Below are positions 19,972 through 48,784 of a stretch of DNA of 64,000 nucleotides, one piece after another. The stretch spans positions 388,080-452,079 of the forward strand of contig NMRA01000280.1 in NCBI GenBank assembly GCA_002633005.1, in the 5' to 3' direction. The notes beneath the pieces were generated by a model. It worked only from the letters and a program-made list of their open reading frames with translations, did no database searches and had not been told where the DNA came from. Position numbers and translations under genes: made by a program. Source of the stretch: Phoronis australis (lineage: Eukaryota > Animalia > Phoronida). Positions within the stretch are counted from its first letter, which is position 1. Every line of letters starts with the position of its first letter.

Positions 19972-20205
19972 NNNNNNNNNNNNNNNNNNNNNNNNNNNNN
20001 NNNNNNNNNNNNNNNNNNNNNNNNNNNNNNNNNNNNNNNNNNNNNNNNNNNNNNNNNNNNNNNNNNNNNNNNNNNNNNNNNNNNNNNNNNNNNNNNNNNN
20101 NNNNNNNNNNNNNNNNNNNNNNNNNNNNNNNNNNNNNNNNNNNNNNNNNNNNNNNNNNNNNNNNNNNNNNNNNNNNNNNNNNNNNNNNNNNNNNNNNNNN
20201 NNNNN
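19972..20205. other. Assembly gap (N run)
   Basis: Run of n, flanked on the right by a (GT)n microsatellite. Confidence 0.98.
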
Positions 20206-25507: not shown

Positions 25508-27025
25508 TTATTTTGATATTGTAGATGCACACAACTTTGTTTTCATTTTCTGGCGAATACCTGGACATAAAGTGAAAATAAGTGCATCAATACATGGTAT
25601 CAAATATACTGACAGCCATGACAGCTGTTTTGTCATTAATGACGGTTGATTTGTCACATGGTGGAGATCGACTCTCATGATGTACTGAGGAAACCGGAAG
25701 AGAGCGTGCAGGAGCGTTAGCATCACGCAGACAATCATGGCGCCTCGATTAGTCCACACTGTTTCAGTAATATGAATTGCTATAGCGATTTTAGACCTTG
25801 TTTTGACTTCTGTATACATTGACTGTTGAGCAGAAAGAGAATTAATCGCTGGCTTTGCCGCCGTATGTCCAGATAGTGTTGCTATGCAGGCAGTTTCTAC
25901 TTTCATGGAAAAGTTGCATTCCCGGCTCTTTGAATCTGTGTTAAGTGTAGGTTTGGAGAAATCAGCGTTGCTACGTTCTAAACTCGGTTGAGTGGTCAAG
26001 TCGTTTGGCTTTGGAGTGTGTATTTCAACTCTTGCCATTGCTGTTTTTTCGTCAATTTTTGTTTGGTTGTTGTAATTTGGTAACGCTGGCATATTATTGC
26101 TGTCACTGTCCAGCTGTCCAGAGGATGATGTGGTTTGCCTTTGTTCAATGTTGCCTCCCGTCGCTTCCAGTTGCCCGCTCCTATTTGTCTCAGTAGACAT
26201 CGGTACAGCTATTATGTGCTTAATGGGCGTTCCGTTACTGTCCAAGTTGTCGTTCACCACACTCAACAAGGAGCTCGTCAGTATTCTGTCACTATCGTGA
26301 ACAAACACAAAGCCACGATGACCAATGCCGGCATGTAAGGCACTTCTTTTGACTGACACGGCAGTCCTGTGCGGTAGCACCGCGTAGATACAAGCCACGA
26401 TGGATAGCAGCATTATTATGGTGGAGGCCACTATCTCTAAAATCTGAATCGCTCCGTTCGCGGCTATGTAATCTTTATGTATTCCACAGTGATTGAATAC
26501 TTGACCAGAGCCAAAATTCACGGTGCTACTTGCTGTTCTAGTTAACAGCGTTAATCTGATGGCGTAGAGCGAAGAGACAATCCACATTGCTATAATAATG
26601 CGTTTGCAGCATGTTGCGGTAGTCATGAATGTATTGGAGTTTCTTGCGTTGCGTGCAAACGTCAGAGCCGCAGCTGCAATGGACATTAAGTGTATGCAAT
26701 CGACGAGGGAGTTGAACGATTCAGTCAACGAGCAGGTGGCTGGTGTTGTCACGAAGACGGAAACGACACCTAGTGTGAGGACTACATGAGAAAGCAGGAG
26801 ATTAGAGCAAGTCAGTGACGTGATGTACCAATCTAGTGTCCCGTAGATGTAGACGTTTTCTTGTTTCCGTGGAGTCACAACGTAAAGAATTAGCCAGTTG
26901 AGAATTAAACTCCATATTATACATGCTATGTAATACGTTACAATGCACGCCATTCCAGTTGTAGAAAGAAGCGCTGACCACTCAAACACTGCAACGGTTT
27001 CATTTGCAGTACTGTTACTCGACAT
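25508..27025 (-). CDS. Orphan, divergent rhodopsin-like 7TM receptor (505 aa, intronless) with very long third intracellular loop
   Basis: N-terminal sequons NST/NET, seven hydrophobic segments, TM1 Asn (LILNWLILYVV), TM2 SLTCSNLL, Cys atop TM3 and in ECL2, TM4 Trp, TM6 FP, TM7 IDALIF then helix-8-like PGIRQKMK; no DRY motif. Confidence 0.75.
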   Translation of the reverse strand: MSSNSTANETVAVFEWSALLSTTGMACIVTYYIACIIWSLILNWLILYVVTPRKQENVYIYGTLDWYITSLTCSNLLLSHVVLTLGVVSVFVTTPATCSLTESFNSLVDCIHLMSIAAAALTFARNARNSNTFMTTATCCKRIIIAMWIVSSLYAIRLTLLTRTASSTVNFGSGQVFNHCGIHKDYIAANGAIQILEIVASTIIMLLSIVACIYAVLPHRTAVSVKRSALHAGIGHRGFVFVHDSDRILTSSLLSVVNDNLDSNGTPIKHIIAVPMSTETNRSGQLEATGGNIEQRQTTSSSGQLDSDSNNMPALPNYNNQTKIDEKTAMARVEIHTPKPNDLTTQPSLERSNADFSKPTLNTDSKSRECNFSMKVETACIATLSGHTAAKPAINSLSAQQSMYTEVKTRSKIAIAIHITETVWTNRGAMIVCVMLTLLHALFRFPQYIMRVDLHHVTNQPSLMTKQLSWLSVYLIPCIDALIFTLCPGIRQKMKTKLCASTISK

Positions 27026-28296
27026 TTTTCACAAGGTCATGTTGTTCCCACTCATATAAGCATCATCAATATTTGTTATTCACAGTATATCTCAATGAGC
27101 GTGCAAATAATGAATAGTTGTTGTTTGCAATATATACTATCGCGTGCTTGGAAATTCATGATTTGAAATTTCTTGATTTGGTAAAAAGCTATTGAAAACT
27201 ATCGATGTGCCACGTCGTCGTTGTCGTGTTCGTAATTTGTGACCACGTGATACTCCCCGCGAAATTTTTGCTGTAGGATGCGGTGAGCTCCATGACCAAA
27301 CACAGGACGGAGTTACTGCAACACGCAGACGATACCAGGGTCGTATTCAGGAGTCACACGATCCCGAGGAGTGTCGCCACAGACAGTGCATGCGAAATTG
27401 TCTACAAAAATTTGCATTTTCTGGTTCAAGTCATTTCAATTGGTATCACTTTAGAAGTTGTTGAAACAAAAAGTCAATGACAGTCGCAAATCCCAATCAC
27501 TCAACCACTACATGAAGCATATAGGTTGGACACTGAAAACTTTGCAGAATTGTTTCAAATCCAAATAAAATTTACGTGCACCTCCCATAGACTGTCAGCA
27601 CGCAATCCTCCCAAGCATTGTCTTCCTTTGATCGAATTAAATTGTCCTTGTCGTTGGCAATTTGGCGACAAAATTTCCGAAGCAAACACACAACTCTCTA
27701 TTTGTGGTCACATATTTTTTCTGTCGTGTCGGACATAACTTGTGCTTCAATTTTATTTCAGATGTGTGCCTCACGTTCGTTTTTTGCAATTATAATGCGA
27801 TAAGAATTCCTTGCGCCAAACCCGTTTTCAGTTTTCCTCAACTCTGTTGTAGTGCGGTGTGAGTGCCTTAAAATCGACCAAGAAACAAAAAACAGAAGAA
27901 ATTGTTTGTTATTTGCTATTTTGGTATACTTGGTGGTATAATATGATACGGTGCAGGTATTTTCAAATTTCGAATTGAAAGTGATCGCCAAATGACTGTT
28001 GTTCATTCAGTGTGTGCGTTTCCATTCTTTTAAATCTAGTACACGCCGACGGTAAGTTCATTACGGGCAGTCCTCCGTCGCTGCTTAAACAAAAACCAGA
28101 CATTTAACTACCGTGTGTTCTTGCACTTAGAAAACCTGGCGAGCATGTTCAAAACATTAAGGAAAAGTTGGTCTAAGTAGACCTAACAAAAACTCTGGTC
28201 AATGAAGAAAGTATTCTTTTGTCAATCAGTGTCAATGGTACACAACCTCGCAGACTTCATACCAGCAACGAATTTGATGGGAAAGATTTCCAAAGC

Positions 28297-29506: not shown

Positions 29507-32500
29507 TCAATGTTCAAGTATATTTACTTCTGGACAATCGTCATAGCAATCGATTGGTTTATCCAAAAACTCCCAAGTAGGAGCTACATTTGGACCGGTC
29601 GATGAATCCACCAGTGGATCGATTGGTGTCGCAACCATTCTTGATCCTTTTACAAGTAGTGTTTCCATTAGACCGACGCAATGTTTCATCGCGTCGGGGT
29701 TTCCGTTAAATGAGGTATGCAAACACTTAAGCATTTTTGTGTATACGTTATTAAATGAGTTGGACAGTCGGCGAGCCACCGAATTGTATTGATATTTGTT
29801 GGTTTTTGGATTGTCCATAATTGGCCAGACGCCATCTTCATAAAATGGAATCTTACTTCCGTCATATGCGTACGTCACATTGCACATCATTAGCTTTGCC
29901 TCTCCGCACACATACCTGTCTTGTTCGTGCACAAAAGGAACGTCACGAGCGGTGTAATATCTTTTGGTACGATGTAACGAATTCACACATTGTTCAGCGT
30001 TTTCAACGCGCAGATACTGGCCGTGTACAATTTGTGAGAACTTATAATAATGTGATAACAATCTCGCTTGAGATGTTTTTGAGGAGACCAGTGGATTGCA
30101 AGCGTCAGAACCTTCACCTTCTTGGGAAATTTGCTCTATCGCACGCGTAGCATCAGATATGCCAGAAATTTTAAATGGTTTGTCAACAACCCTAGTGTAC
30201 CAATGAGAAACTCCAATCTGTCGAAGAGGATCACCGTTGAATATCGTTCCACCCTTCTTCCTTGCTTTGTCCTCAAGTTCAACCAACGCCTTCAACACCA
30301 AGAAAAAGTGGAGAACATGAATTCAACACTGCAAGTATCAAGTACAAGTATACAACTGCCAAACTTGGCAACAATTGCATGTTCACCTTCCCCTTTCATG
30401 CACAGAATTGTGAATTTTAGCAAAAACTTGGTGTTGTAAGTTTTTGTCACCGGCATTCAATCACACTGCATGAGTACCTGTATTTTATTTGTTGGAGAAA
30501 AGGTAAAAATCACCGAGTGGCTCAAAAAGCATGAAAACGTTGTATAGGTCCTTTGGACTCGTGCTTCGGAATCTACGCCAACATGTTTGTAGTGCAAAAG
30601 GCGCGGCCAGAACTCACTGCCCTAACTAACCCTCCGCCTCAGTGAGTAGCATTGGGGAACATTGTGTGATCACATGTATCCAGTCGGAGCATCCGGGCAT
30701 TCATTGAATAACGACCCGTTTGATCATTCGGGCAGGATACGTACTGTGCCCGGCTAGTAAAAGCGTTTTACTTACGTTCTGTATTGTTTTGTAAAATTGA
30801 CCAATTGTCTTCGGGTAGTGCTCCTTTTCACAGCGTGATCTCTCACTTACTCGTTTACACCGGCTTACAATGACATCTTCTGGTTGCTCTATTTCCATGA
30901 AAACGTTTTGAATGTAGTCCACAGTGAGTTTTTCCAAAGTGATCACCAAGTCTGGCCTCAGCCCCCCTGGAAGACCATATGAGGGATATACCGGTGTCCA
31001 TTTAGACTCATTAAGGACAGGCTTGCCTCCAATGGCGTTTAGAATGTTCGCCACTAAGGTCATATGACTCATCTCTTGAACAGCGATGACTTTCAGAATA
31101 TCATACACCTCCCTGTTTCTACCCGGTTTAATGGACATTAGTCCAGTGAGATACGGTGGGATAGTCGAAAGCTCCACGAACAGTGCTTTCTGTAACATAA
31201 CTTCAAGGTCAACTTTTGCCGGGTGTTCTGGTACACCAAGTTGTGGATTGACCAACCAGTTGTTGATCGTTTGCAGGGTGTATCTGGATACATCACGTGA
31301 TACTGGCATGTAGTTGCCATCAGAAACGGGTAGGTTCATAGACATGCGTATTTTGGGGATGTTTTCCACGACACTGTTGTACTCCGCCAGGTTGACAATA
31401 GGTCTCATAACTGGATACATTGCGGCGTATCGAGAGAATATAGGCTTGATGTCTTTGTGCCATGTCGGGTGTTGTATCACCTTTTCCTTGAAGAACAGAT
31501 AAATTACAATGCAGGCATCTCCGCTGAGCACAAAACGTTGAGACTCGGGGCTCTTGTAGCGCACTAACAACCAGTAAATCTAGCAGAAAAACAACAAAGA
31601 AATCAGGTTGGTACAAGAATCACTATAGAAATAGCTCGTTCTTTTAAATATAGACCCTCACTGTTTTTATCAGTTTGCAACCCAAGAGCTTCATGAATAA
31701 ACCCTACATTTCATAAAACATAGCTTTTAGGGTGAATGTGGTTTTGTTACTTTCAAAAAATTAAGAGCTGGCGTTTATTTCATTTCTTTTGCTTTTACTT
31801 AAGTCTATGATGTAATATGAAATGGCATGGAATGAAAAGATCATCGTTCCCAGTATGAAATGGAACTAAACAGAACAGGCGCAAATTTAGAAATAACTGA
31901 CACAAAAAGTAATGCGTTTCGGACGGTAATGCTTCTTTATTAAAAAACGGTCTACTTAAGGACAACTCTTCTAAACATATGAATTTCGTTTTGAATTTCC
32001 CTAAGAGACTTTTGTCATTTTTATATTGTTTATTTTTCTTTACCAGTCGGCATTCTGTTTAGTTATATTTTGGTGTGTTTTGTGATAAAAGGATTCTTCG
32101 TGAAACAATTTCCAGTTCCATACCTGGGCATTTGGCAGCTGGTTTGTTGTCCTATTTGAGTTTGGTTTCTTCCCAGGATCTCCAGCTCTGAACGCTATGC
32201 TCGCTTCCCCTCTTTCGTCAGTGACGCCATCAGTGAAGTGCAGCGCTCCTTTGGGTTCATTGATCACTCCATCACCATCGGCAAACTCATTAGACATTGA
32301 GAAGGTTACGTTTTTATTTTTGTCTTCCTTCGAAGCAAAATTTAAACTGATGTGGACATCTTTTAATGGTCTCCCAAACTGGTAAGCATAGAACGTGACA
32401 TTCCATTCGTCGTCCGGGTGTTTGTAAAACGTGTAGTTATGTTGTACTCCAACAACTATGCCGTCAGCCGATTCTTCAAGAAGTATGTCATCCATATTCC

Positions 32501-35500
32501 TAACAACGCCTAGAGGACTAGATTGAATTAGTGGAAGCATAGTTTCTTTCACCTCAAAAGGTTGGACACCCGACGTCGCTCTGTACCACTTATCTCGCTT
32601 GTAATCAAGATGCCCAACACGGATCATTCCACTTTTTGTCAAAATAGTTAAATACAATTTACCATTGTCCATATAGTCTGACGCAAAGCGCCCCCTAATG
32701 TCACATTTTAGACTGTTTCCAAAATCAACTATTACTAGCTTTCGATCTTCGTCGACAATAAATGGCGCATCAAAGTATTTGCTGTGCTTTGGTCCCAATT
32801 TGTTTCTCATTACACGTGCAACCTTAAACATGTGACACGAATCCTCGCCATGCGGTCCTATAATACCAGCTACACGTCCGTGCTTGTAATTAACGTCCTT
32901 TTTGTTCTTGTTAAACAAATCTACATTAAATTTAATAGATAACGTGGGCGCGGTTGACACTCCAGCGGTAACATTCATGAGCTCGTGAACGAAACGGGAT
33001 TTGCGCAGTCTTTTCTTTATTGATTTCTTCCACTTTATGTTGGTGAGAGTTGACTTAAAAAATCCACCGAGTCTGGAATCAAAGATTTGATCTGGCACCT
33101 TAAGCCAACCGTGCTGATAGGCAGCCACTGCAAACCGACCGGTGAGTACATCTCCCAGTGTTATGGTCCAGCCCCAAATTTGAGACATGCTCATAACTGA
33201 GGTATCCATGTCCACTAATTTAGGATTACTTAGATGTGTTCCTACAAAGACAATATTATTTCAGTTCGAAGGGACAAAAACCTTGTTTTATCATGACTAG
33301 ACAACTCAATTGTTAACAAGAATGTGCCATAAAGCCCCGCAATTAGGCGTCTAATTATGTGACCGCGCCTAGTTGCGGCCATAGGCGCGTGGCTTTATAT
33401 GTGGGGCACTTGAGTAGAGCTTGCATTAATTACGGTGCTCCAGATATAGGTGCACCTTCGATGCTTCAAAAAACACCCTTAGTTTGCACGTGGATTTTAG
33501 TGCAAATTCTTTTCTGATGACATACTGCCGACGAAACTGCAGTGCTTGTTTTTCTGGCCAAGAAAACAAGTCTATGGCAGTTTCAGTCCCCGTAGCTCTT
33601 CTTGACCACATTGGTCCTCGATCTGTGACCCTCGCTTGTACCTCTCTTCCCATATCCAACCAATGAGCTAAATACTGAATTTAGCTCATTGATCCAACCA
33701 TCTGTAAACTATCCTTGTCAGGTTAAACAATCGATTGCAGTTAAAACGTTGTAGCAGTGAAGTTTATTCTTTCGAAGAGGAGATGAACCAAATGTTATTT
33801 TATACGTAAATCGTTATTGAAAATAAAACTTGTAATGAGTTTTAAATTTTATATCTTTAGAATTTAACTGTTCCTGTAGTCACCCAGAGGGTCACTAACG
33901 CCACACGCTGTGTGAAATAAAAAGCATTTAGTGTATTTTTTAAAATCATTCAAGGCGCGTCTATGACCGGCGCAAGCGCCTATACGCGGGACATTTGATT
34001 AAAAAATCTTGCGAAAAAAGGAAGTGGTTCTCATATAGGTGCACACGCCTAACTGAGGGGCTATACGGCAACGGCGTGAACCTTTGAAAGTCTAGGCCAT
34101 TAAGCGTAACCAAAACGTCGTGTTCAACACAACACGTCTTTATCTATCTATCTGTCCGTCCATCCGTCCGACCGAACGTCCGTCTGTTTGTCTACATCTA
34201 TATCTATGTCTATATATGTATATATTTTTCATAGCGTATTTTTCTTTAGAAATCGTAATTTTACTTTCGTAAATTAAAGTGATATACTTGTCTCGACCGC
34301 CTCAGTTGATACATATACTTTGACTATTACCTACCGGCCACAGCTTGCCCTATGAGTGCATCAGATTTTGGATTTGAGGTGCACGTTGCGTCACTGTAAC
34401 ATACTCTGGTAACAACGACATCCACAAAGTCCCAGTTGTTTCCACCCTGACAAAGATTTTGAAAGGACGTTAGTCCAACGAACATCTCTCAAAGAATAAA
34501 ATAGGGCAAGCTTGCTCCATTATATTTCTCAGAAGATTCGATGCTTTGACAATAATCATTAGTTTTCATATCAAGTCCCTCCAACTTTGGATTTTCGTGC
34601 GTTCAATACTTGTCAGTCCTTATAAATATGACAGGTTACAAAGAAATCCTATGCCCGCGGTCTAACCTCTGCACTTTAAAAGGTTACTAAACCATGTTTT
34701 GATGATGTCAACCAATCCTCGTTCTATCACCTGCTGATGTAACCATGGCGTCAGTCTTGAAAGATAAAAGCAGAATAAAAAAACTCATACCACCTATTTC
34801 GCAAATTGCACATTACAGTCCTTGATAGGTGGTATTTTCCCACAGTTGCCGTGTAATTCGCTAAAAGCGTAGGTCAACCTTTAGTCTACTTTCACATTTA
34901 GCAGATTTTTTAGGGTTGTCGAGGGTTTCGGAGTATTAGTTGGTTTCAGAGAACTAGACGGGAAAGTCGTTTTTAGTATCTGTTCATAGGTCAAAACCAG
35001 GTTTGGTATCCTTTTAAACAATACCAAGACTATGACTGGCGGACAAGAGAACTTGGTCGTAGCTGTTATCCTCCCTTTTTGAGAAGATAGCTAGACTTGA
35101 TCATTGGTGATCTAACTGTTTGATTTTTAAAAAAAAACATTATCAGCGTTCTTACAAAATATCTTTCGGCTTTGTAATCACTTTCAATGACTAAACCGCA
35201 TTATCAGAAGTTTAAATTCCACGTTGAACTGAATGCCTTTTCAGTAGTCTGTACAGGTTCCACCTATGGAACGGAAATTTCAACGTCCATGCAAGGAGCG
35301 GTTTGTATTTGAAGAACGTCTTGGACAACATAGACTACATCACGACTTTGACTTACTTCGTAATGGCAAACCATGTCGACGATGTCCCCTACGCCGTTGC
35401 ACAGGGTATGCTGACTGAAGTTTCCCATGTCGTAATTTTTAGCGTGGTTGTTAGCTGTAGTGAAGTCGGAATAAAATTTACCGGCGAAGTGCAGTCTAGG

Positions 35501-37084
35501 AAAATCCAGATAGGAAGATACAGTGAAGCCTGGGCGCAGAACACACGAATCTGGAACATAGGCATTATTGGAAGCATACATGTTTTGAAAACGCAGATTG
35601 TGCAGTAAAAATTAACATTTCCCCCTTGTACGCATTCAAGTCCATGGTAAGGTCCAGAAAACTAGTTTTCAAAAACCAATAATTGCAAATTGCCAATTCA
35701 CTTCTCTCCAACCCGGTCACGATAAAAAATTGAAATATGGGATCTAATACCACAGATTGTCCGTTGTGGGGGAAAATGGTGGTTTAAAACTCGAGCCCGA
35801 AAAGTATATTTGCGCCAGTAATTTACGAACCTAATTTACGGGCGACACTTTTAGCCCTGACCCAGGGGGAAAGCTTAGACCGCGACTCGAATTTAGAGGT
35901 GCTCCCATGGAAACATGACCCTGTGCCTGGAGATTGATGATCGTGTTTGGTCGATGAGTGGGTGGAATTTCGGGGTGCGTGTCTAGGGAATGGAGATTCA
36001 AGGGATACTGGCTGAAATTTAGACGCTCGATTATGGAATTGTTTCCACCTAATACAATATCTCTCAATCTTTGACATTCATCATCTGGTAATTTCCATTC
36101 TGATCGAAATGATTTCAAGAGGAAGTAATGCAAATTCAGTAACCAATGCTTCAAATCTTTCTTAAGCAAAACTACCGTGGCTCATAGTCTACAAATCCCA
36201 ACCACATATCTACAGTACCTGTTCATGTACTTGAGTGATATAACTTTTCATAAACAAGACAATGCGATACTCCATTTTTGTGGATAATACACGTTTAATC
36301 ACCTTCGTCACTCTTGTCCGGGCAGTCAATATGTCCATCACAAATCTTACTAGAATCTACACAGGTGTAGTCTTTACAAAGAAATCCTGAACACTTTTGG
36401 CTTGGCTGCGTTGACGTTTCTACAATATTAGGTTTTGCTGAAAAGAAATTTGTATACCCTTTAAAATATTTGTGCAAGTCCCAGTAAAACCGAAGTAGTG
36501 ACAAAACAGTGTATCCATAATTGAGGGAGACCCAGATGGACATATAAGTGTCTTAGCCTTCATCATCTGGGTGAAAAACTTTTCTCTCTGGCTGGAAAAT
36601 TTACCACCCAAGTGATAAACATTTCTACCTTGGATTAGAGTAATTCGCACGCGGACGGTAACGCATTTACACCCAGGCAGAAATGTTTTCCAATCGAGTG
36701 GTAAAAGACAACGATACAAAAGACTTGAAATAGTCACAAGATTGAATGTCATTTTTGGACCACCGTATTGATTAAGTAAAGTAAGAAATTCATTGCTGCT
36801 GTCCCGCATTCTCTCCTGGTAGATGACACACGATTGGCAAAACATCGCTCGTATTATAGCACCTCTCTCGAACACGCATGTTTCTTTCAAACAATCCTCT
36901 TATCAGACGTACAATTTTTCCTGTTGCCGGCTTTGAATAACTGCTGAATCTTTAGATGGAGGCCTTCTTCTCCCTGGCTAACCACGGCGAAGAGTATGAG
37001 GGTGGACACTTGTAAGAGGAACACAAGGCATAATAACACGTGAATCCATGTGTGTGTCTCGTATTCCTTGTCTCTTCGTTCCAT
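29507..37084 (-). CDS. Signal anchor + LDLa + VioB/RebD-like (iminophenyl-pyruvate dimer synthase-like, C-terminal ferritin-like) fusion protein, paralog 1, 1105 aa; exons 37084-36913, 36437-36303, 35550-35357, 34446-34335, 33241-32124, 31579-30776, 30289-29507
   Basis: All six introns GT-AG with compatible phases (1,1,0,1,0,0); 3318 nt open. Motifs: SYLDFPRLHFAGKF...TANN (VioB-type start), KLVDMD....SQIWG, PTW.KDI.PIF..Y..MYPVM...YMPVSRD.S, LQKALFVELSTIPPYL, QEMSHM....NILNAIGG.P, FMEIEQP, TIGQFY, EGEG, SHYYKF; six-Cys LDLa ending SDEDSC. Confidence 0.88.
33324..34070. mobile_element. MITE in intron 4 of paralog 1 (orthologous copy 50082-50833 in paralog 2)
   Basis: tgccataaagccccgcaattaggcg ... 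cgcctaactgagggggctatacggca inverted termini with repeated cgcctaattgc units. Confidence 0.65.
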
Positions 37085-38040
37085 GGCCTGCGTCTAAATG
37101 GAAAAATTTGATGAGTGAACATTATTTACTTATCGATTTCCTAATCAGATGCATCAATTTTATCAACAATTATGAATTACCCCAAGTCAATAGATGTATT
37201 TCAATCACAAAGAACAGATCCGAAAGTTCAAATAATCTAACTTCATTTGCTTATTGACTTAAGGTCGCATTAATGTCATTGCAATCGGTAGCAGTACGTG
37301 TTTGGACGTTTCTGACACGAGAGACCATCAGGCAGCATCCGGGTGTTCTATCCACTTTATTTGAACTTGCTTACCAATTCTATATCAAAAAGACCAAAAA
37401 TAACCCCACCAGTCGATCATCTGTCAACACCCGGAATCACTATCTGTCGATATGTTAATTGACCTATCCCAAGCTCCGCCTCCTTTCGTAATGTCGACTA
37501 ACAAACTATAAGTTTTACCCGGCAACGTGTTGTTTGTTGGGTAAAACGGCGGCTTGGAAACGAAGGTGGGCCAATAATGCTGCGTTCTACATGGTCAGTT
37601 AAGCCGTCACTCAAAATCCTGGCGATAGGTCAATTAGCTTATCTCGAATTACGAACATTTATTGGTAGATTCAAACTCCATACAATCGAGACAACAAATG
37701 GGGGTGGGCTCCAGTGATCATTTTGAAGAATAATATTAGATTGAATCTGTCCTTCCAATCTTCAATACGGGGTTCCCCAAGGTGTAAGAACCCTAGAAAT
37801 GTCATTGAAAGTTTGAAAAGATTATAAAAATAATATTCAACTTCATATGAAGCACTTTAACTGTCGTGAGGTCTTTGACAGCCAGCCTTTAATTCCCCGC
37901 CTTGTGCAAGTAAAGTTGCTTACCACGTTTTTCATGATCTACGTCTGACCAAATTATTTCTTTAATAGCTTTTACAATTACCGAAGGTATTCAAGGTATT
38001 CAAAGGGAATTTTTGTATCGCTGTCAAAGATACTATACTA

Positions 38041-40740
38041 GGCACAAGATGTTTTGTAGCAAATGCACGCGAACGCATTTCGAGGACAACTGTCCTACCA
38101 AAGGCAAAACATGTCACGCTTGTGGAACTTTTGGCCATTTTTGAGACAGCAACACCACTATCAAAAGCAGAGACGAGGACTATCCCGATGGCACCAAGGA
38201 GGACACAAAAATGTGCATAGAACTGAGGAGGACCATATGGCAACAGATATGATGGAACAATGCAGTATTAAAGATGTGTTCTGTATAAATTGTATCCCAT
38301 ACGCGTTGAATCTATCGAGGGAAATACGGCCATGTAATAAAGTTTTCCGTATTCACCTCCCACACTACTTCAACATTGACCTCTGACATGGAAGTTCAAA
38401 AGGTAGGTCAATATCGACTCGACGTCGATAGCCGATTCGATCACCAAACTTTCGGCAATTAGTTTAAAGTAATACAATTATAGCAGTGTAAATAACGCTC
38501 AACATACCATCAGGTCTCAATCGTAACATCTGGAACAGGACTATTAATTAAATGGCAGTTCTGTCTCAGTTTTAATTTGCTAAATATTTTATCGTCTGTA
38601 ACTCAGGCGCCGATTGCTCGGTAACTACAATATCAAATATTGTTGTTATTTAACAATTTTCAGGAGATGTTACAAGTTCAATGAAAAGTTATCCTTGTTT
38701 CCATCTTCATTGTCTCTTTTCAAGTAATAAATCGTCACATTTAAAACTGTTTCTTCGACTATACAAAACTTGCAGCCTAACGCGCAAGTACATACATATA
38801 GGATGTAGTGATCCGTCAGGTGAACAGTCTGAGTGAAGTATTAAAAATATCTGCCGAAAAATGAAAGAAACATAAGCATTCGAAGCGTATGGAATAAATA
38901 CAAAACGTACCTTGATTGCGGTCTCGGTCGATACGCAGAATAATGTTTCGTAGGATATTACTTCATGTACGCCACTCTCGGTACGTAATGTGTATTTATC
39001 TACATCATTCGTTATCTTACTTACCTATAATTTCATTCACTCTGTATATTTTGTTAATGCCTATTTTCCACTTCGTCGATTTGTCTATGTATTTTGTCCC
39101 TATTTCCATATATGTTACTTTTGTATCTTTAGCCTTACATTTTAGTCCAATCCGTTACTGCCACGACAGCAGGGTGAGGTCACACCTGGCAGCTGTTCCA
39201 GCACTTGGGAAAACGTACCTCCAGCTTTGGCCCCTGGAGTTAGGGTTGAATATCCGGCTGACAGCACTCTGTAACATGTGCGCACCCAGCCTTCAAAATG
39301 GAGGGGCTCGAATTCCTGACGTCGTGGACCTTTTGCTACCAAAAGAGCGGGCAGACTAAAAAGAAAAAAATGGGAGCACCCCTGTGTTTCTTTAATGGAC
39401 ATTTGTCCCATTTTCTTGGACTTTTTGTATCTCGGGGGCGGACCGTTTCGCCTAATGGGGGCGCGCATGCAGTTTGTGGAATCTACACAATACCTCCCTT
39501 TCCTTCCTTATTTTTATTTCGGTGCGTCACTGCGGATTGGCATGAGTTGTCTTCACATCTCTTGTGCTCATCTTTCCAGAGATCATTACTTTTTGTTTAC
39601 TTATTATTTTGCTCTCATATTTCATAGTAAATGACCTTTACTTCACCTACTGTATATACGGTCTCCCTTTTATTTCTGTAAACGGAGCTTGCAACGCACC
39701 TATCATTTTTGGGACATACTTTGAACATAAATTCAAGTACAAATTCTGATGTTTGGAATGTCGCAGTACAAGTAGGTAAGTCACACTTATCCTTCACAAT
39801 TAATACTTTTGTAGATTGCAATATATTGTCACTAGCTACACTGAGAAAGTTAGGTAGCGCAATGTTGTGATCAATGGTATTCATGGCAAACCACAGAAAG
39901 CATGTGGTGAAATTGTACCGCCAGTTGTTTATAAGAATAAAAGACACACGCTACATTTGTTAGGACGTGATGACGGTGTGAAACTAAATGTAGTCCAGAG
40001 AGTGTTTGGAGTGAACTCTCAGAACCAAAATGCAAATCATGATGCCTTTATCAGAAAATAAAGTGATGTGTTTGAAGAAACAATTGGCTGTATTCCAGGC
40101 GAATGCGACATTCAGGTAGATTCTTCTATATCGGCAGTAGTTCACCCTCCCAGACCAGTTCCAGCTGCTACCAGAGTGCAGGTAAAAGTGGAATTAGACC
40201 ATCTAGAAAGATGTGGCATTACCGCGAAAGTCACCCAGCCAACACCATGGGTGTCACCACTAGTATGTGTTAGGAAACGCAATAATAGAGTCAGGTTGTA
40301 CATTGATTCCTTTAGCTTAAATAAGGCTATTTTGCCTGAAAACCACCAAATGAGTTCAATTGATGATATTGTACTTAAATTACATGGGAGTAAAGATTTC
40401 AGTGTACGTGTTGCAAACATGGGTTATGACCATATCAGGCTGAGTGAGCAAAGTACTTACTATACAGCATTTAATACCCCATTTGGGCGACACAGGCATC
40501 TTAGACTGCCCATGGGCTTGGAAAGTTCCCCGGGAAATTTATCAAAAGGCTATGCAAAATATGTTTGGCAACATTTCTTTGGGAGTGGAAATTGTGATGA
40601 ACGATATTCTGATTCACGGCAAAACAACCGAAGAGCATGGTGAACGGCTAATAGCTGTAATGGAGATAGCCTGAAAAGGATTATAATTAAATCTAATTAT
40701 AACTAAGATTAGTCAACCTCAAATTAGTTATGTGCGGATG
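38041..40740 (+). mobile_element. Degenerate Ty3/Gypsy LTR retrotransposon (gag zinc knuckle and pol RT fragments, interrupted)
   Basis: 38050-38145 reads CSKCTRTHFEDNCPTKGKTCHACGTFGHF; 40068-40674 has PTPWVSPLVCVRK..NRVRL.ID...LNKAI, TAFNTPFGR...RLPMGL, MNDILIHG.T.EEH; frameshifted. Confidence 0.85.
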
Positions 40741-41939
40741 ATTGAAATTGCTGCAGGTCTTTCCTTTAGAGTGCCCGGCTCAACTGCGCCGTTTTCTTGG
40801 CAAGTCACCTTGCCTGCCCAAATTTTTCTGAGCATTGAAGACATCGGCCTGCTCCTGCGCTAATCAAACTTTTACACGCTACAGAAATGTTACGCCTAAT
40901 TTTATACCATTTCTTAGCACAATTTGTGGCTCTCAAGCATATCCCTAGCCTGCTGTAAGTCTAACGTTATATATTTTGGTAAAAATCGCACACAGCTACA
41001 ATTAGCACTGTCGTAATCGCATTTCTTAATTCCGCCACAGTATGCATACTTGGAAGTTAGTTTTGCTAGGTGTTTTCTCAAATTAATCCACAACAGTTGT
41101 TCATCATTAAATGCCTCAAATCCTCGCGAAGGACATTTCCGTCAACACAAAACGCTCCCTTGGCTTTCTTCAAAATTCTTATATGCGCTTGCTTCGAAGG
41201 ACCCGCATAGTAGCCGTGGCTGGAATGTCGGCAACCACACGACTAAGTCTACAGCTAACTCCTGTTGAAATTCTCTATACTTCAAACTTCTTGTGTGCAG
41301 GTGCTGATAATTGCCTTCAATGGTTTTCACAATAAGAGAAAACAAATCCGAGTTATCACACACGCCCACTGGCCTGCTGCTGCCTTCCATTTTCACTGGC
41401 CACCCTGCTACAGCCGACTTGCACAATAGCCGAATTAGTCAACACATTGGTGGTCACGTGCCGGGTACAGGTCCATGAGACAAGTTGCAGAGACAAACTC
41501 AGTACAAATTCATAAACCCGTTTACACGCACAATTAAATGCGCAAAACTGCTACTGAATTTCTTAAACCTTTTACTTAATGCTCAAGCTATACAACGAGT
41601 CCGTGTTGAAGCACAACCTTGACCTTGGACCACCGATGGACTCCTCGCATCAGGGGCACAGTAAGCGGGCTGAGGGCACGTGTACCAGCAAAAAATTACA
41701 GGCCTCAGGGTCAAACCGTAGCAACCGACAAAGGCGTGGGGCTGGGGAAAGACAAAAAGAAAGACTGCGAATACTGATCAGAGAGAAAATTCAAGAGAAC
41801 ATTTGACAACTCAATATCAGTGTATGGTTTACCCTTTGAATGTCCTGGCCAGGACATTTGTTAGTGTCTTCGTCGAAGTGGAAACGACTAACCTACAATC
41901 ACCAAGCAAGCCGAAGAACATAATTTGAAATCAGCAGCA

Positions 41940-42135
41940 GTACAATACAATACAGTACAATTCAATACAATACATTGCAATACAAAACAATACAATGTAA
42001 TGCAATGCAATTCGATACCATACAATACAATACAATCCAGTACAGTGCAGTACTGTAGAGTACAGTAAAGTGCAATACAATACAAAAAATGCAATACTAT
42101 GATACAATACAATATACTGATACAATACAAGTAAA
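41940..42135. repeat. (TACAA)n pentanucleotide microsatellite, imperfect
   Basis: tacaatacaatacagtacaattcaatacaatac... visible directly. Confidence 0.9.
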
Positions 42136-42329
42136 CAATACTGAGAAGGAAATTATTATATACTATTCATACATTGTACAAAGTGGTGCCATTTATCAAC
42201 ACTCAACAGAATACAACATGTTGAACAAATTGTCAATGCGTAAGTGACTACATTTTGTATATCTACTTGTGTGTGCGTGTGGTCGAGTATGTGCGTATGC
42301 GTAAGTGACTACATTTTGTATATCTACTT

Positions 42330-42860
42330 GTGTGTGCGTGTGGTCGAGTATGTGCGTGCGTGTGAGTGCGCGTATAAATGAGTAATGTGTCTATGTAATA
42401 ACGCAGTCTGTATATGGTTATTCGTGATGGAGAAGGTGCTTAAATCATAGTAAAAACTTAATCCTGCCATATGTTGAAAGTCCAGTAGGTGCGTTTGTGT
42501 GTTTATCTTATCTAGAGCTGAAGAGGGTATTTCATTTTCATGGATGCTTCTGGTAATATGAAAAGCGTAACTCAGTGAGTTGCCTTGATTGTTTTGTAAA
42601 ATGGAGTCTTGAGTACATGCAGGATTGTATAATTGCGAGGCACAACAATACAATTTCGTAGAAGGACTGGTGAACGAAATTTTAATTGTTCTGTTGTTTT
42701 GGTTGTGGTAACGTATGAATTTAATTGTTTTAAAGTAATGTGGAAGTTGGTTGTGTGGAAACTTGTAATCAAGCATTAAGTGTGTATTCAAGGATATGTA
42801 TTTTAGAAATTGGATTTGTATGGACAAAGTAGTACGAATTGATTTTTTTTATTAAAGCTC
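42330..42860 (-). repeat. Dispersed repeat, probable LINE 3' end; related to 20206-20640
   Basis: Similarity to 20206-20640 with (GT)-rich tail; adjacent ~60 bp local tandem duplication at 42237-42355. Confidence 0.65.
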
Positions 42861-43881
42861 GTTTCTTGAATTAACGACTGCAGACTACATTGTTTTAAAT
42901 CATGTGCGGAAGCCCGCAAAGTTTTACTCCACTTTGGTAGAAGTATCCTAGATGGCTCTCAACAGTAATTCTTCATTCGATTAGCTTGCACAAAAATATT
43001 TGCCAAAGTTTTATATTTTTCAACGCCTAATGGAAATCTTGCTGGAAACAACGGAAAATTTACCAAATGTTTTTATATGATGTAGACACAATACAAAGTT
43101 GATATTCTACATTTTCTTAATATGTATATTTCGGAGAAATTTGATCAAATTGTCCCTCGTAATTAGGTGAAAATTTAACATATTTTGTAAAAAAGTCAGG
43201 TTCTGATGGTTTTGCAAATGTTTTTCAGTGTGACGAAAATTAGTGTTTTTCATAAGTACTGGGACGTTGTTTTTGGTATAAGTACACCTATCGGCATTTC
43301 TAATTGCCGAAGTATCGTTTACTTTTGCACGCAAAAGCATAAACATTAAACCTGAGTTCGAAATTTTAGATATTTTCGGAGTATTGAACCTTCGGAATAG
43401 TGAACCTTCGGAATAGTGAACCTGTAGAATAGTTGCCTGCACCTATTTCCAGCAATGTAAGTAACACGCACCAATACAACCAGATAAAAAATTTCGTCAA
43501 GTCATTCTCAGCCTAAAAAATTCCGTCCGAGTTTGTAATGAGGTGTAATCAATCATTTACGCACGCCTGATTTGAAAGTTTGGCGGAAGGTAACGCGAGA
43601 ACGTTCTGTTTCTGGACCACATTACATGTCCGAATCTGAGTCCCATTCTTTACGAGTAACCCTTCACGACATCCTCATTTCAGTCAAGCTCCGTCAAGGG
43701 CCTTAAGGAAATCTCTTCAGTGTCGACCTTTGCAAAATAGCAAAGGTCCACCGTTACAGAAATTCGAACCACCCCTTGCGCAATGTTGGCAACGGGCCTG
43801 CAATAGGCGCGTTCGCAGAGATTTTATTCTTGCACTTCATTATATTCAAAGTATCACATGAACTCCAAATACGTTACTACT

Positions 43882-46800
43882 TCAATAATCCAGCATATTC
43901 AATTCTGGACAATCGTCATAGCAATCGATTGGTTTATCCAAAAACTCCCAAGTAGGAGCTACATTTGGACCTGTTGATGAATCCACCAGTGGATCGATTG
44001 GTGTCGCAACCATTCTTGATCCTTTTACAAGTAGTGTTTCCATTAGACCGACGCAATGTTTCATCGCGTCGGGGTTTCCGTTAAATGAGGTATGCAAACA
44101 CTTAAGCATTTTTGTGTATACGACATTAAATGAGTTGGACAGTCGGCGAGCCACTGAATTGAATTGATATTTGTTGGTTTTTGGATTGTCCATAATTGGC
44201 CAGACGCCATCTTCATAAAATGGAATCTTACTTCCGTCATATGCGTACGTTACATTGCACGTCATTAGCTTTGCCTCTCCGCACACATACCTGTCTTGTT
44301 CGTGCACAAAAGGAACGTCACGAGCGGTGTAATATCTTTTGGTACGATGTAACGACTTCACACATTGTTCAGCGTTTTCAACGCGCAGATACTGGCCGTG
44401 TACAATTTGTGAGAACTTATAATAATGTGATAACAATCTCGCTTGAGATGTTTTTGAGGAGACCAATGGATTGCAAGCGTCAGAACCTTCACCTTCTTGA
44501 GAAATTTGCTCTATCGCACGCGTAGCATCAGATATGCCAGAAATTTTAAATGGTTTGTCAACAACCGTAGTGTACCAATGAGAAACTCCAATCTGTCGAA
44601 GAGGATCACCGTTGAATATCGTTCCACCCTTCTTCCTTGCTTTGTCCTCAAGTTCAACCAACGCCTTCAACCAAGAAAAAGGAGAGAACATGAATTCACC
44701 ACTGCACGTATCAAGTACAAGTATACAACTGCCAAACTTGGCAACAATTGCATGTTCACCTTCCCCTTTCATGCACAGAATTGTGAATTTTAGCAAAAAC
44801 TTGGTGTTGTAAGTTTTTGTCACCGGCATTCAATCACACTGCATGAGTACCTGTAATTTATTTGTTGGAGAAAAGGTAAAAATCATCGAGTGGCTCAAAA
44901 AGCATGAAAGCGTTCTATAGGTCCTTTGGACTCGTGCTTTGGAATCTACGCCAACATGTTTGTAGTGCAAAAGGCGCGGCCAGAACTCACTGTCCTAACT
45001 AACCCTCCGCCTCAGTGAGTAGCATTCGTGAACATTGTGTGACCGCTTGTATTCAATGAGAGCATCCGGGCATTCATTGAATAACGACCCGTTTGATCAT
45101 TCGGGTAGGATACGTACTGTGCCCGGCTGACAGTTTCCCCTGAAATTGTTTCTGGCCTGTATAAGGTTTTGAGATTGAACATTTATTTTTCATATTGCAA
45201 TCAAATGTCACGCTGCAATCAGTGTAGGAGCATGCTTTTGTTTTTTGCGGTTAGGATTCAAATGCCCAGCTAGTAAAAGCGTTTTACTTACGTTCTGTAT
45301 TTTTTTGTAAAATTCACCAATTGTCTTCGGATAGTGCTCCTTTTCACAGCGTGATCTCTCACTTACTCGTTTACACCGGCTTACAATGACATCTTCTGGT
45401 TGCTCTATTTCCATGAAAACGTTCTGAATGTAGTCCACAGTGAGTTTCTCCAAAGTGATCACCAAGTCTGGCCTCAGCCCCCCTGGAAGACCATATGATG
45501 GATATACCGGTGTCCATTTAGACTCATTAAGGACAGGCTGGCCTCCAATGGCGTTTAGAATGTTCGCCACTAAGGTCATATGACTCATCTCTTGAACAGC
45601 AATGACTTTCAGAATATCATACACCTCCTTGTTTCTACCCGGTTTAATGGACATTAGTCCAGTGAGATACGGTGGGATAGTCGAAAGCTCCACGAACAGT
45701 GCTTTCTGTAACATAACTTCAAGGTCAACTTTTGCCGGGTGTTCTGGTACACCAAGTTGTGGATTGTCCAACCAGTTGTTGATCGTTTGCAGGGTGTATC
45801 TGGATATATCACGGGACACTGGCATGTAGTTGCCATCAGAAACGGGTAGGTTCATAGACATGCGTATTTTGGGGATGTTTTCCACGACACTGTTGTACTC
45901 CGCCAAGTTGACTATAGGTCTCATAACTGGATACATTGCAGCGTATCGAGAAAATATAGGCTCGATGTCTTTGTGCCACGTCGGGTGTTGTATCACCTTT
46001 TCCTTGAAGAACAAATAAATTACAATGCAGGCATCTCCGCTGAGCACAAAACGTTGAGACTCGGGGCTCTTGTAGCGCACTAACAACCAGTAAATCTAGG
46101 AGAAAAACAGAAATCAGTTTGGTACAGGAATCACTCTAGAATAGCTCATTCTTTTAAATATAGACCCTCTCTGTTTTGATCAGTTTGCAACCCAAGCGCT
46201 TCATGAATAAACCCTACATTTCATAAAACATACCTTTTAGGGTGGATCTGGTTTTGTTACTTTCAAAAAATTAAGAACTGGCGTTTTTTCATTTCTGTTG
46301 TTTTTACCCTAGTATATGATGTAATATGAAATGGCATGGAATGAAAAGATCATCGTTCCCAGTATGAAATGGAGTAAACAGATCACGCGCAAATCTAGGT
46401 ATAACTGACACAAAAAGTAATGCGTTTCGGATGGTAATGCTTCGTTATCAAAAAGGCGGTCTTCTGAAGTATAACTGTTCTAAACATCTGGATTTCTTTA
46501 TTTTGAACTTGTGACTTTTATATAGCCCATGATGACATTGATGATGCTCTTGATGCATTGTACAAGTTATTTAACAGTATTTTAAACGAATATGCTCCAT
46601 GGAAAACTAGACGTGTGAAGAGATTACGTCAGCCTGAATGGTTCAGTGATAACATTTTTGAAGCTACAAAGCTCAGGGATAGTTTTCGTAAGTGCGGAAA
46701 TTATGAGGTCTAGAAATCAGAGCGAAATCATGTTGTAACAATGATTAAAAAGGCTAAGAGTGACTATTACTCTTCACTGATCAGTAGTAATCTCAAAAAT

Positions 46801-48751: not shown

Positions 48752-48784
<33 letters not shown>

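Follow-up and report, generated by a model that had tools for sequence, protein, structure and literature searches.

An LDLa exon joined to a bacterial-type ferritin-like protein in two tandem genes of Phoronis australis

A 64,000-nucleotide stretch of Phoronis australis DNA (contig NMRA01000280.1, positions 388,080 to 452,079; hereafter the window) carries two gene copies in which an LDLa module is joined directly to a large bacterial-type enzyme-like protein. We propose that in both transcribed copies an LDLa exon of phase 1-1 is spliced to the exon with which this protein begins, and that the upstream exon likely encodes an uncleaved signal anchor, resulting in a type II membrane product; we assign this reading a probability of about 60%. 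The case is clear, though not without precedent: animal parts have been used to rebuild an ancient gene of bacterial type.

Gene structure and the LDLa junction

Copy A consists of seven exons on the minus strand (29507-37084). Assembly by script yielded a coding sequence of 3318 nt (1105 codons) with no internal stop, in which the phases of the six GT..AG introns match. Copy B (43882-53833, minus strand) is an intact tandem twin of 1105 codons with equal splice sites and structure and a protein identity of 95.0% to copy A. Between the copies the exons are 94-98% and the introns 84-96% identical. An earlier sequence-only reading had described three exons. Exons 1-3 stand as described, and the coordinates 35357, 37084, 35581 (the ATG) and 53162/52568 (copy B) are exact, but that account halts before a small exon at 34446-34335, which belongs in the gene model because the frame is kept only with it. 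An alternative start 5' of exon 2 was rejected, as the in-frame Met of the extended frame in copy A is absent from copy B. The features are as follows.

36913-37084, minus strand: copy A exon 1; ATG, 12-residue charged tail, 23-residue hydrophobic stretch and linker of about 22 residues (from sequence); donor GTACGT, ending in phase 1
36980-37048, minus strand: hydrophobic segment, codons 13-35; predicted signal anchor or signal-peptide core (Kyte-Doolittle)
36303-36437, minus strand: copy A exon 2, phase 1-1; linker, LDLa cysteines 1-5 and DxSDE calcium-cage motif (PF00057; RNA joint at the donor side); ends in DCPDKSDE plus one base, donor GTGATT
35357-35550, minus strand: copy A exon 3; acceptor TTCCAG, D-S-C, 11-residue linker and start of the bacterial-type N-domain, donor GTAAGT (RNA joints 35550/36303 and 35357/34446; bacterial alignment)
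35543-35550, minus strand: exon 3 bases for the rest of the D103 codon, S104 and C105, with which the LDLa module is complete (translation, motif match)
35486-35515, minus strand: SYLDFPRLHF, residues 115-124, equivalent to bacterial residue 2 onward (homologue alignment)
35579-35581, minus strand: in-frame ATG in intron 2, ten codons 5' of exon 3; candidate leaderless start, kept in copy B (sequence)
34335-34446, minus strand: copy A exon 4, 37 codons; aligns to homologues (RNA joint 34446/35357, one X2 read and three X3 reads)
32124-33241, minus strand: copy A exon 5, bulk of the beta-rich N-domain (HMMER relatives; RNA joint 32124/31579)
30776-31579, minus strand: copy A exon 6, first part of the PF12902 ferritin-like domain (E 2.8e-39; RNA joints at both ends)
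29507-30289, minus strand: copy A exon 7, remaining PF12902 (E 3.4e-12), C-terminal helices and stop codon (RNA joint 30289/30776)
53662-53833, minus strand: copy B exon 1 (sequence, comparison with copy A)
53162-53296, minus strand: copy B exon 2, LDLa cysteines 1-5 (sequence, comparison with copy A)
52375-52568, minus strand: copy B exon 3, D-S-C and bacterial-type start (sequence, comparison with copy A)
51429-51318, 49998-48881, 46095-45292 and 44664-43882, minus strand: copy B exons 4-7 (intact frame, splice sites of copy A)
47599-47970: RVT_1 reverse-transcriptase fragment in copy B intron 5 (domain scan)

The LDLa motif is defined by six spaced cysteines and the acidic cage D-C-x-D-x-S-D-E. 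Exon 2 alone matches PF00057 with 29.7 bits (gathering cut-off 24.1, E 7.5e-7) over model positions 2-34 of 37, and the final positions, including the sixth cysteine, come from exon 3. Cysteines C73, C78, C83, C90 and C96 are encoded by exon 2 and C105 by exon 3, at canonical spacing, with the motif match covering residues 73-102 plus C105. The cage reads DCPDKSDE in copy A and DCQDKSDE in copy B, and both copies keep the six cysteines and the cage. The sequence-only reading had exon 2 end at DKSDE and exon 3 continue with D-S-C and VLRPGFTVS into SYLDFPRLHF; translation of the minus strand and the script assembly reproduce this to the base. The equal join that it placed in the second copy is found between copy B exons 2 and 3, at 53162/52568.

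The bacterial homologues P0002, P0009 and P0015 open with MSYLGFPR[IL]HF or MSYVGYPRLNF. This start motif lies at residue 3 or earlier in 72 of the 89 fetched relatives that bear it, and at residue 116 in the window protein. The LDLa motif was found in none of the 178 fetched relatives, and a Pfam scan of 16 homologues revealed in all 16 ferritin-type domains only, or a weak Ig-like match in one bacterial member. By this comparison the LDLa exon is a lineage-specific addition, the window lineage alone having an LDLa among the 178 relatives.

RNA evidence and the status of the gene

RNA was placed on copy A at a likeness of at least 97%, and then on 35200-54100 at 92%, which pools both copies; 18-19% of each run was read, X1 consisting of contigs and X2-X4 of reads. 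Joints with GT..AG ends were found at introns 2, 3, 5 and 6 of copy A (four of the six introns). The fusion junction proposed from the sequence is itself spliced in RNA. The exon 2/3 joint, 35550/36303, has CT..AC ends, equal to GT..AG on the minus strand, and is carried by one X1 contig (depth 11.2, shorter side 50 letters) and two X4 reads sharing one start. Joint 30289/30776 was found in an X1 contig, one X2 read and five X3 reads. The first mate of the exon reads in X2-X4 is always on the plus strand, and this holds for exon 1 too, which is transcribed on the same strand and covered at a depth of 0.76-0.97 in these runs. Both variants of a copy-discriminating site (29748-9 in copy A, 44123-4 in copy B) are present in X2 and X3; both copies are transcribed. 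The exon 1/exon 2 joint (36913/36437; 53662/53296) was not among the joints at 97% or 92% likeness, with 18-19% of the runs read at about 1x coverage, and the intron 4 joint (34335/33241) was likewise not among the joints listed at this coverage. The X1 contig of exon 1 extends about 50 bases beyond the predicted donor in both copies.

Intron 2 is covered by X3 at a depth of 1.1-1.75 over 35533-36074, compared with 0 in the five other introns, and X1 contigs lie inside it at 35885-36048 and 36063-36214. Therefore, an intron-retaining or internally started transcript exists. If the main transcripts started here, translation from the ATG at 35581 would yield a leaderless cytosolic protein, exon 1 or exons 1-2 would fall outside the main product, and the LDLa form would be a minor isoform. 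The conservation of this ATG in copy B is consistent with such a start, as are the lack of the exon 2/3 joint in X2 and X3 and that of the exon 1/2 joint in every run at about 1x coverage. However, the exon 2/3 splice is present in two runs, and in each copy exons 1 and 2 are intact with matching phases, exon 1 being 98.3% identical between the copies and intron 1 84%. Besides the cysteines of leader and LDLa module, a further 17 are found in the body, whereas bacterial members have 2-5; together with 8 N-x-S/T sites, this is what would be expected if the protein is secreted. In addition, all named animal homologues have leaders, and it is not unusual for chance to place an in-frame ATG this close to an acceptor, within ten codons (about 1 in 10, by estimate). 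A main start within intron 2 is thus improbable in our judgement.

It could also be argued that there is no working gene, the fusion being mimicked by bacterial contamination, an assembly chimera or a decaying pseudogene pair. In favour of this, the window's own protein is missing from both protein sets searched, and dN/dS between the copies exceeds 1 over the first 105 codons. Ten non-synonymous and one synonymous change were counted there, compared with 48 and 51 in the remaining gene (Fisher p 0.009), thus indicating relaxed or diversifying selection on the leader and LDLa part; yet the cysteines and the acidic cage residues are unchanged. Against it stand a whole-gene dN/dS of 0.30, 1105 open codons with canonical splice sites in both copies, spliced strand-consistent RNA in four runs, and a gene tree that matches the animal tree. 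Fragments of eukaryotic retroelements (RVT_1, endonuclease) were found within an intron and between the two copies, animal genes with introns are located upstream, and the neighbours include an SBF-family gene and a WH1-like gene. G+C is 0.38-0.43 throughout, with the gene like its surroundings. The sequence-only reading had argued against bacterial contamination, and the six GT..AG introns (four with RNA joints), the diverged tandem copies, the retroelements and the matching G+C bear it out. Contamination is excluded and this is a resident animal gene; that the locus lacks a working gene is very hard to credit.

Leader and predicted membrane topology

Exon 1 had been described as a short charged tail followed by a hydrophobic segment of about 22 residues, which agrees with the tail of 12 and the stretch of 23 residues found here. 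The Kyte-Doolittle 19-residue maximum (KD19) is 2.78 at residues 13-35, a single segment of transmembrane length, and the rest of the 1105 residues never exceeds 1.6; hydropathy of this kind does not distinguish between a signal anchor and a long signal peptide that is cleaved. The flank charges of the segment nearly balance, being -1 on the N-terminal side (0 including the free amino group) and -1 on the C-terminal side. A hydrophobic N-terminal leader is present in 10 of 10 named animal homologues and in none of four bacterial ones. KD19 of the animal leaders is 1.06-2.22, the window segment being longer and stronger. Exon 1 would be spliced to exon 2, and the hydrophobic segment would stay uncleaved. 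As exon 1 likely encodes an uncleaved signal anchor, the product is predicted to be type II, and a topology in which both the LDLa module and the enzyme-like body face away from the cytosol is plausible.

Alternatively, the leader might be a cleaved signal peptide. The gene and its splicing would be unchanged, and the mature product would be a soluble secreted LDLa plus ferritin-like body, similar to the apparently secreted animal homologues. The ten named homologues have short signal-peptide-like leaders (KD11 2.28-3.05, KD19 mostly below 2), and the S-Q-G/E-E that follows the window segment reads as compatible with the -3/-1 rule. However, the segment follows a highly charged tail, and its 23 residues, with the KD19 given above, exceed the 7-15 residues of the usual signal-peptide core. 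We regard cleavage as possible but rather unlikely, and retain the uncleaved signal anchor as the preferred reading.

Type II transmembrane serine proteases (matriptase, corin, enteropeptidase, TMPRSS) consist of a short cytoplasmic tail, a signal anchor, an LDLa stem and a C-terminal extracellular catalytic body. The window product, with its predicted topology, has a similar layout, which is an architectural analogy and not kinship. The catalytic domain is unrelated, no trypsin family was found in Pfam scans of any window exon, and the window gene has one LDLa only. By analogy with other cell-surface enzymes, the LDLa module might serve as a calcium-dependent tether or stem.

The earlier suggestion that an animal N-terminus re-targeted a cytosolic bacterial-type enzyme holds in part. 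Leaders mark the animal members and not the bacterial ones, and cysteines are more numerous in animals: 24 in the window protein, all kept in both copies, and 10-31 in animal members, against 2-5 in six bacterial members. However, this secretory re-targeting took place long before the fusion with LDLa: the leader occurs in all named animal homologues and the LDLa module in no fetched relative.

The protein family and its history

The enzyme-like body consists of beta-sandwich domains and a PF12902 ferritin-like domain. PF12902 matches exon 6 with 135.7 bits and exon 7 with 47.2 bits (cut-off 22.3), jointly covering model positions 1-220 of 221. At 154 columns, at least 27 of 30 bacterial members agree, and the window protein retains 126 of these, among them E713, E746, H749, E808 and H925. 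In copies A and B alike, Q replaces E931, one residue of a conserved E..H pair. In a fold model of the Lingula homologue (pLDDT 79.6), only the ferritin-like half matches a convincing structure, PDB 3hl1 (ferritin-like CC_0557 of Caulobacter), which among solved structures comes nearest to the C-terminal half (E 7.1e-6 with exon 6 and 1.6e-21 with the family profile; TM 0.69 on the target). Unlike the window protein, CC_0557 has 317 residues and lacks the beta-rich N-terminal half. The likeness of the N-terminal half of the model to complement C3 and adhesins had a TM of at most 0.1 on the query and was not taken as kinship. ESM Atlas matches were PF12902 bacterial clusters only (scores 0.81-0.83). 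NCBIfam gave no family for four window exon translations (E<=0.1), and Rfam none within the window.

A HMMER search with exon 5 revealed 374 relatives at E<=1e-3, with a best identity of 35%; a word-based search with the same exon among longer proteins gave no match. Bacterial loci numbered 216, from many phyla. The bacterial members, 'ferritin-like domain-containing proteins' of about 900 residues, as in Chitinophaga, Bradyrhizobium, Pseudomonas cichorii and Pilimelia columellifera, are collinear with the window protein from bacterial residue 2 to the end, with PF12902 equally placed. Unlike it, they have a Met-Ser start and few cysteines (2-5), without leader, LDLa or introns. Their neighbourhood is not conserved: at 12 loci (33 flanking ORFs scanned of 70 listed), no recurring partner and no VioA-like or amino-acid oxidase gene was found.

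The VioB/StaD/RebD iminophenyl-pyruvate dimer (chromopyrrolic acid) synthases (TIGR04492; PF12902) are similar in size (about 1000 residues) and in the place of the ferritin-like domain. VioB performs a haem-dependent coupling of two indole-3-pyruvate imines and is partnered with an L-tryptophan oxidase. Two relatives match the VioB model weakly, at positions 555-653 and 670-833 of 1003, scoring 19.9 bits (P0002) and 17.1 bits (P0023) against a curated cut-off of 1250, and the window exons do not match it. With scores this low and no VioA-like neighbour at the 12 bacterial loci, the family is therefore a distant sister family and not an equivalog. By analogy with these distant relatives, the body may be a metal- or haem-dependent oxidase.

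The animal homologues compared were those of Lingula anatina (XP_013383910.1, P0179), Ptychodera flava (P0001), Glandiceps talaboti (XP_077992063.1, P0041), Branchiostoma spp. (P0012, P0016, P0178, P0024), Montipora capricornis (P0023) and Oscarella lobularis (XP_065840370.1, P0182). Similar to the window protein, they have a body of about 900 residues that runs from a [Y/C]L.FPR.HF start through PF12902 to the C-terminal helices, a hydrophobic leader and many cysteines. They differ in lacking the LDLa module and in their shorter leaders, with 33-38% full-length identity to the window protein. Public annotation calls the animal members 'uncharacterized protein'. In searches of the literature we found no paper treating the family in animals; the supplements of a metazoan HGT compendium (PMC13342648) may list members.

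Apart from Oscarella, these homologues form one clade with the window copies: Montipora, hemichordates, amphioxus and (Lingula,(P0131,(winA,winB))), with an SH-aLRT of 98 (98-99 over two trees) and 95 for the lophotrochozoan part. The sponge falls outside this eumetazoan clade, in a separate, weakly placed group. The tree indicates that animals have passed the family on by descent from the common ancestor of cnidarians and bilaterians, at the latest; as the trees are unrooted, the direction of transfer is our inference. In the history we propose, a bacterial-type gene would have entered animals before the cnidarian/bilaterian split and gained a secretory leader. Later, in this lophotrochozoan lineage, the LDLa module would have been inserted behind the leader and ahead of the old start, and the tandem duplication would have followed.

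On a broader and speculative view, which we think rather doubtful as a whole, marine invertebrates from corals (perhaps sponges) to amphioxus would have undescribed, anciently acquired extracellular VioB/StaD-like ferritin-fold oxidases that make or modify a small molecule, such as an indole- or aromatic-amino-acid-derived pigment or defence compound. In the window lineage, a shuffled module placed exactly at the old bacterial start would have produced a membrane-tethered, LDLa-docked ectoenzyme, with two young copies diverging fastest in the docking part.

The locus shows cleanly, and at base resolution, how an animal domesticates a cytosolic bacterial-type protein, with the leader and many cysteines first, as in all named animal homologues, and a classical phase 1-1 module later, in one lineage. 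It also carries a lesson for annotation, that introns and leaders should be checked before bacterial-looking frames in invertebrate assemblies are discarded as contamination. In addition, it draws attention to a family present in coral, sponge, brachiopod, hemichordates and amphioxus. Should the body be an oxidase like VioB/StaD, these animals may perform, outside the cell, chemistry that is commonly attributed to their microbes.

Gene structure and the fusion join

Copy A was assembled on the minus strand into seven exons with a total of 3318 bases, giving 1105 codons with zero internal stops. All six introns have GT..AG ends, and their phases are compatible throughout. The positions 35357 and 37084, the ATG at 35581 and the second-copy join at 53162/52568, all taken from the sequence-only reading, were exact on re-reading of the strand. 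Downstream of the exon 3 of that reading, the RNA joint of intron 3 uncovered an exon of 37 codons, exon 4 (34446-34335), which belongs in the gene because the reading frame is kept only with it.

Exons of copy A in the assembled gene model
37084-36913, minus strand, exon 1
36437-36303, minus strand, exon 2
35550-35357, minus strand, exon 3
34446-34335, minus strand, exon 4
33241-32124, minus strand, exon 5
31579-30776, minus strand, exon 6
30289-29507, minus strand, exon 7

The product of exon 1 starts with a 12-residue tail (7 of 12 residues charged), followed by a 23-residue hydrophobic stretch and a linker, in agreement with the charged tail and hydrophobic segment described earlier from the sequence. 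Exon 1 ends in phase 1 at the donor GTACGT. The phase 1-1 exon 2 encodes a linker and the LDLa cysteines 1-5 and terminates with ...DCPDKSDE plus one base, and exon 3 finishes the Asp codon, adds Ser-Cys (the sixth LDLa cysteine) and continues through VLRPGFTVS into SYLDFPRLHFAG... Exon 2 alone matches PF00057 (LDLa) with 29.7 bits against the Pfam threshold of 24.1, and exons 2 and 3 together contain the complete six-cysteine LDLa pattern with the acidic cage.

Four sequencing runs were mapped to the locus: X1, coded and of uncertain type, was kept as contigs, and X2-X4 are stranded-looking RNA-seq with the same species label. Reads were mapped to copy A at a likeness of at least 97%, with 18-19% of each run read, and a second mapping to 35200-54100 at 92% likeness was aimed at pooling both copies. 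RNA joints were found for four of the six introns (2, 3, 5 and 6), with CT..AC ends on the plus strand.

RNA joints of copy A
30289/30776, intron 6: X1 contig; X2 1 read; X3 5 reads; X4 0
31579/32124, intron 5: X1 none; X2 1 read; X3 1 read; X4 3 reads
34446/35357, intron 3: X1 none; X2 1 read; X3 3 reads; X4 0
35550/36303, intron 2, the fusion join: X1 contig (depth 11.2; shorter side 50 letters); X2 0; X3 0; X4 2 reads with one start

The first mate of the exon reads in X2-X4 lies on the plus strand in every case, which would fit minus-strand RNA in usual stranded libraries. That exon 3 closes the LDLa module and then runs into the bacterial-type start is confirmed by the sequence together with the RNA joint 35550/36303; the LDLa/bacterial-type fusion is genuine, and its exon 2/3 splice is present in RNA. 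The transcript expected across exons 1-3 was thus recovered in part: the exon 2/3 splice is present in the X1 contig and the two X4 reads, and no exon 1/2 joint was seen in either mapping at a coverage of only about 1x over exons 1-3, from 18-19% of the runs. No intron 4 joint was seen in either mapping (97% on copy A; 92% on 35200-54100; 18-19% of the runs).

RNA was also found beyond the predicted splice sites. The X1 contig over exon 1 extends about 50 bases past the predicted donor, and it is closer to copy B (3 other letters) than to copy A (5). Intron 2 shows an X3 depth of 1.1-1.75 over 35533-36074 and two X1 contigs, whereas the X3 depth in the other five introns is 0. Therefore, unspliced or internally started transcripts exist. 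The ATG at 35581 inside intron 2, which is in frame and also kept in copy B, could give rise to a leaderless product. By blastn blocks, about 160 bases of copy A intron 2 (35953-36114) are without counterpart in copy B; X1 contigs cross both borders of this stretch, indicating that intron-containing RNA specifically from copy A exists.

Two stretches attract RNA from both strands. A 39-base element in intron 3 (34837-34875 in copy A, 51818-51856 in copy B, 2 mismatches between them) collects many reads with flanks unlike the window and with loose ends at 34835-34840 and 34874-34876 (at most 38 reads per row). It matches no Rfam family and resembles the conserved core of a repeat that is dispersed and transcribed. 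Directly upstream of copy A exon 1, 37093-37723 has an RNA depth of 19-32 per strand in X2-X4, with loose ends numbering in the hundreds at 37592-37594 and 37635-37636, which points to another transcribed repeat family beside the presumed promoter.

The tandem copy and the neighbourhood

Comparison of the copy A locus with the rest of the window by blastn revealed a tandem twin at 43.9-53.8 kb. Copy B, with its exons mapped from copy A, has the same seven exons, identical splice signals and 1105 open codons, and the second-copy join of the sequence-only reading is thereby upheld. The two proteins are 95.0% identical; identity is 94.1-98.3% over the exons (98.3% in DNA for exon 1) and 84-96% over the introns. 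Intron 5 is 2785 bases long in copy B versus 544 in copy A, owing to a retroelement insertion (46842-48196). The dN/dS over the whole gene is 0.30, and 24 of 24 cysteines are retained in both copies. Codons 1-105 (leader, linker and LDLa) carry 10 non-synonymous changes and 1 synonymous change, in contrast to 48 and 51 in the remaining codons (Fisher p 0.009). These changes sit in the linker and at variable LDLa positions, leaving the cysteines and cage residues unchanged. The pattern may stem from diversifying selection acting on the docking part, or else from local gene conversion. At the copy-distinguishing site 29748-9 versus 44123-4, both variants were read in X2 and X3, so both copies, or two alleles, are expressed.

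The G+C content is even across the window (0.34-0.43), and long open frames are scattered and interrupted. Fragments of reverse transcriptase and LINE-type endonuclease are present, with a WH1-like gene and an intron-bearing gene of the SBF family upstream.

Retroelement fragments (RVT_1, E down to 2.6e-16; LINE-type endonuclease PF03372)
46842-48196, in copy B intron 5
40062-40643
54895-55445
57387-57821

The window is eukaryotic. Bacterial contamination is excluded by the introns, the spliced RNA, the eukaryotic retroelements and the intron-bearing neighbours, and the earlier argument against it is borne out by spliced RNA from an intron-bearing animal gene.

Other features of the window were as follows. 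Several open frames at 10311-15815 (minus strand) are parts of an intron-bearing sodium/bile-acid symporter family gene, one piece of which matches PF01758 with E 4.2e-5, just below the Pfam cut-off. No Pfam family matches the 413-codon open frame at 7434-8675 (plus strand), whose relatives carry the names 'WH1 domain-containing' or 'misexpression suppressor of ras'; its matches are best with Lingula anatina (37%, 89% coverage) and molluscs, in agreement with a lophotrochozoan host. The unbroken open frame of 506 codons that follows shortly downstream of copy A (25508-27028, minus strand) matches no Pfam family at E<=0.001. At about 19960-20230 the assembly has a gap, a run of N that reads as X in all six frames, with CA/TG dinucleotide repeat on its flanks.

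The bacterial-type body and its descent

PF12902 'Ferritin-like' was matched by exon 6 (E 2.8e-39) and exon 7 (E 3.4e-12), covering model positions 1-220 of 221, and no Pfam or NCBIfam family was matched by exons 3-5. Exon 5, as the query of an all-against-all HMMER search, gave 374 relatives at E<=1e-3, with a top identity of 35%. Exon 6, used in a word-based search, brought up 29 long proteins, among them bacterial ones near 900 aa in length and animal ones of 970-1080 aa. The bacterial homologues start with MSYLGFPR[IL]HF and align with the window protein from there through the C-terminus. This motif lies at residue 3 or earlier in 72 of the 89 fetched relatives that have it, and at residue 116 in the window protein. 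Of 154 near-invariant columns, in which 27 or more of 30 bacterial members share one residue, the window protein keeps 126. Among those kept are glutamates and histidines in the ferritin-like helices, with the exception of E931, which is changed to Q.

Two relatives reached 17-20 bits with the VioB equivalog model, whose cut-off is 1250, and the window exons gave zero matches to it, making VioB a distant relative only. For the Lingula homologue, an AlphaFold model (pLDDT 79.6, pTM 0.72) predicts that the N-terminal half is all-beta and the C-terminal half helical, and a solved relative, the ferritin-like protein 3hl1, is convincing for the C-terminal half only. No gene neighbour is conserved across 12 bacterial loci. 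Going by family and fold, the body would be an oxidase like VioB/StaD. Literature listings and the opening parts of abstracts yielded no paper treating this PF12902 family in animals; PF12902 is mentioned for fungal genes adjoining lodA-like genes (PMC4417212).

The family has 216 confirmed loci in many bacterial phyla, and its occurrence in animals is patchy: Montipora (coral), Oscarella (sponge), Lingula (brachiopod), Ptychodera and Glandiceps (hemichordates) and Branchiostoma. Two unrooted trees were built by a quick method with SH-aLRT support only, the first from 44 rows, leaving out proteins below 800 aa and the homologue P0024, and the second from 30 rows (both window copies, 13 eukaryote-like and 15 chosen bacterial sequences). 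The eumetazoan sequences form one clade in both (support 99 and 98, respectively). Its inner order in the 30-row tree matches the animal tree: Montipora; hemichordates; amphioxus; (Lingula,(P0131,(winA,winB))), where P0131 is the nearest relative of the window protein, winA and winB are copies A and B, and the last group has a support of 95. The sponge group stands apart, with a weak placement (support 73). The gene is therefore an old resident of animal genomes; its descent has been vertical from the cnidarian-bilaterian ancestor or earlier, and it was lost many times. The breadth of distribution suggests a bacterial origin, the trees being unrooted.

The leader and the gain of the LDLa module

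A hydrophobic N-terminal leader was found in 10 of 10 named animal homologues (maximum Kyte-Doolittle hydropathy over 11 residues 2.28-3.05) and in none of four bacterial members (0.54 or less). Among four unnamed sequences of the sponge clade, three are without a leader and may be mis-started. In addition, animal members have 10-31 cysteines versus 2-5 in six bacterial ones, and the window protein has 8 sequons. Leaders and cysteines thus indicate that secretory re-targeting is an old feature common to the family. The proposal that an animal N-terminus re-targeted a bacterial-type protein therefore holds, but the re-targeting is ancient and family-wide and did not come from the LDLa fusion.

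The window leader exceeds all others of the set in length and hydrophobicity (19-residue maximum 2.78 versus 1.06-2.22), which favours a signal anchor with putative type II topology; the protein has no other hydrophobic segment. That this leader is instead a long signal peptide removed by cleavage is less likely. The nearest layout analogy is with the type II transmembrane serine proteases, whose catalytic body is unrelated.

The LDLa motif is absent from all 178 fetched relatives, and PF00057 from 16 of 16 homologues scanned with Pfam. P0131, which is encoded on a 70-kb contig, is truncated at its N-terminus, so the age of the LDLa gain is not bracketed. LDLa modules are classical phase 1-1 shuffling units. 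Intron 2 sits two residues ahead of the sixth cysteine, so that exon 2 holds an incomplete module, and exon 3 must then be a chimaera, in which D-S-C and perhaps also the linker come from the donor and the former start of the body follows. A genomic piece consisting of the LDLa exon, its intron and the opening bases of the following exon might have been inserted between leader and body; alternatively, an intronless LDLa segment might have been inserted and the intron gained later.

The sequence-only interpretation was right in kind, with the corrections that the re-targeting is ancient, that both the join of exons 1 and 2 and the type II topology are predictions, and that a leaderless isoform starting in intron 2 may exist. 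Among the homologous sequences compared, the LDLa insertion is the lineage-specific novelty.
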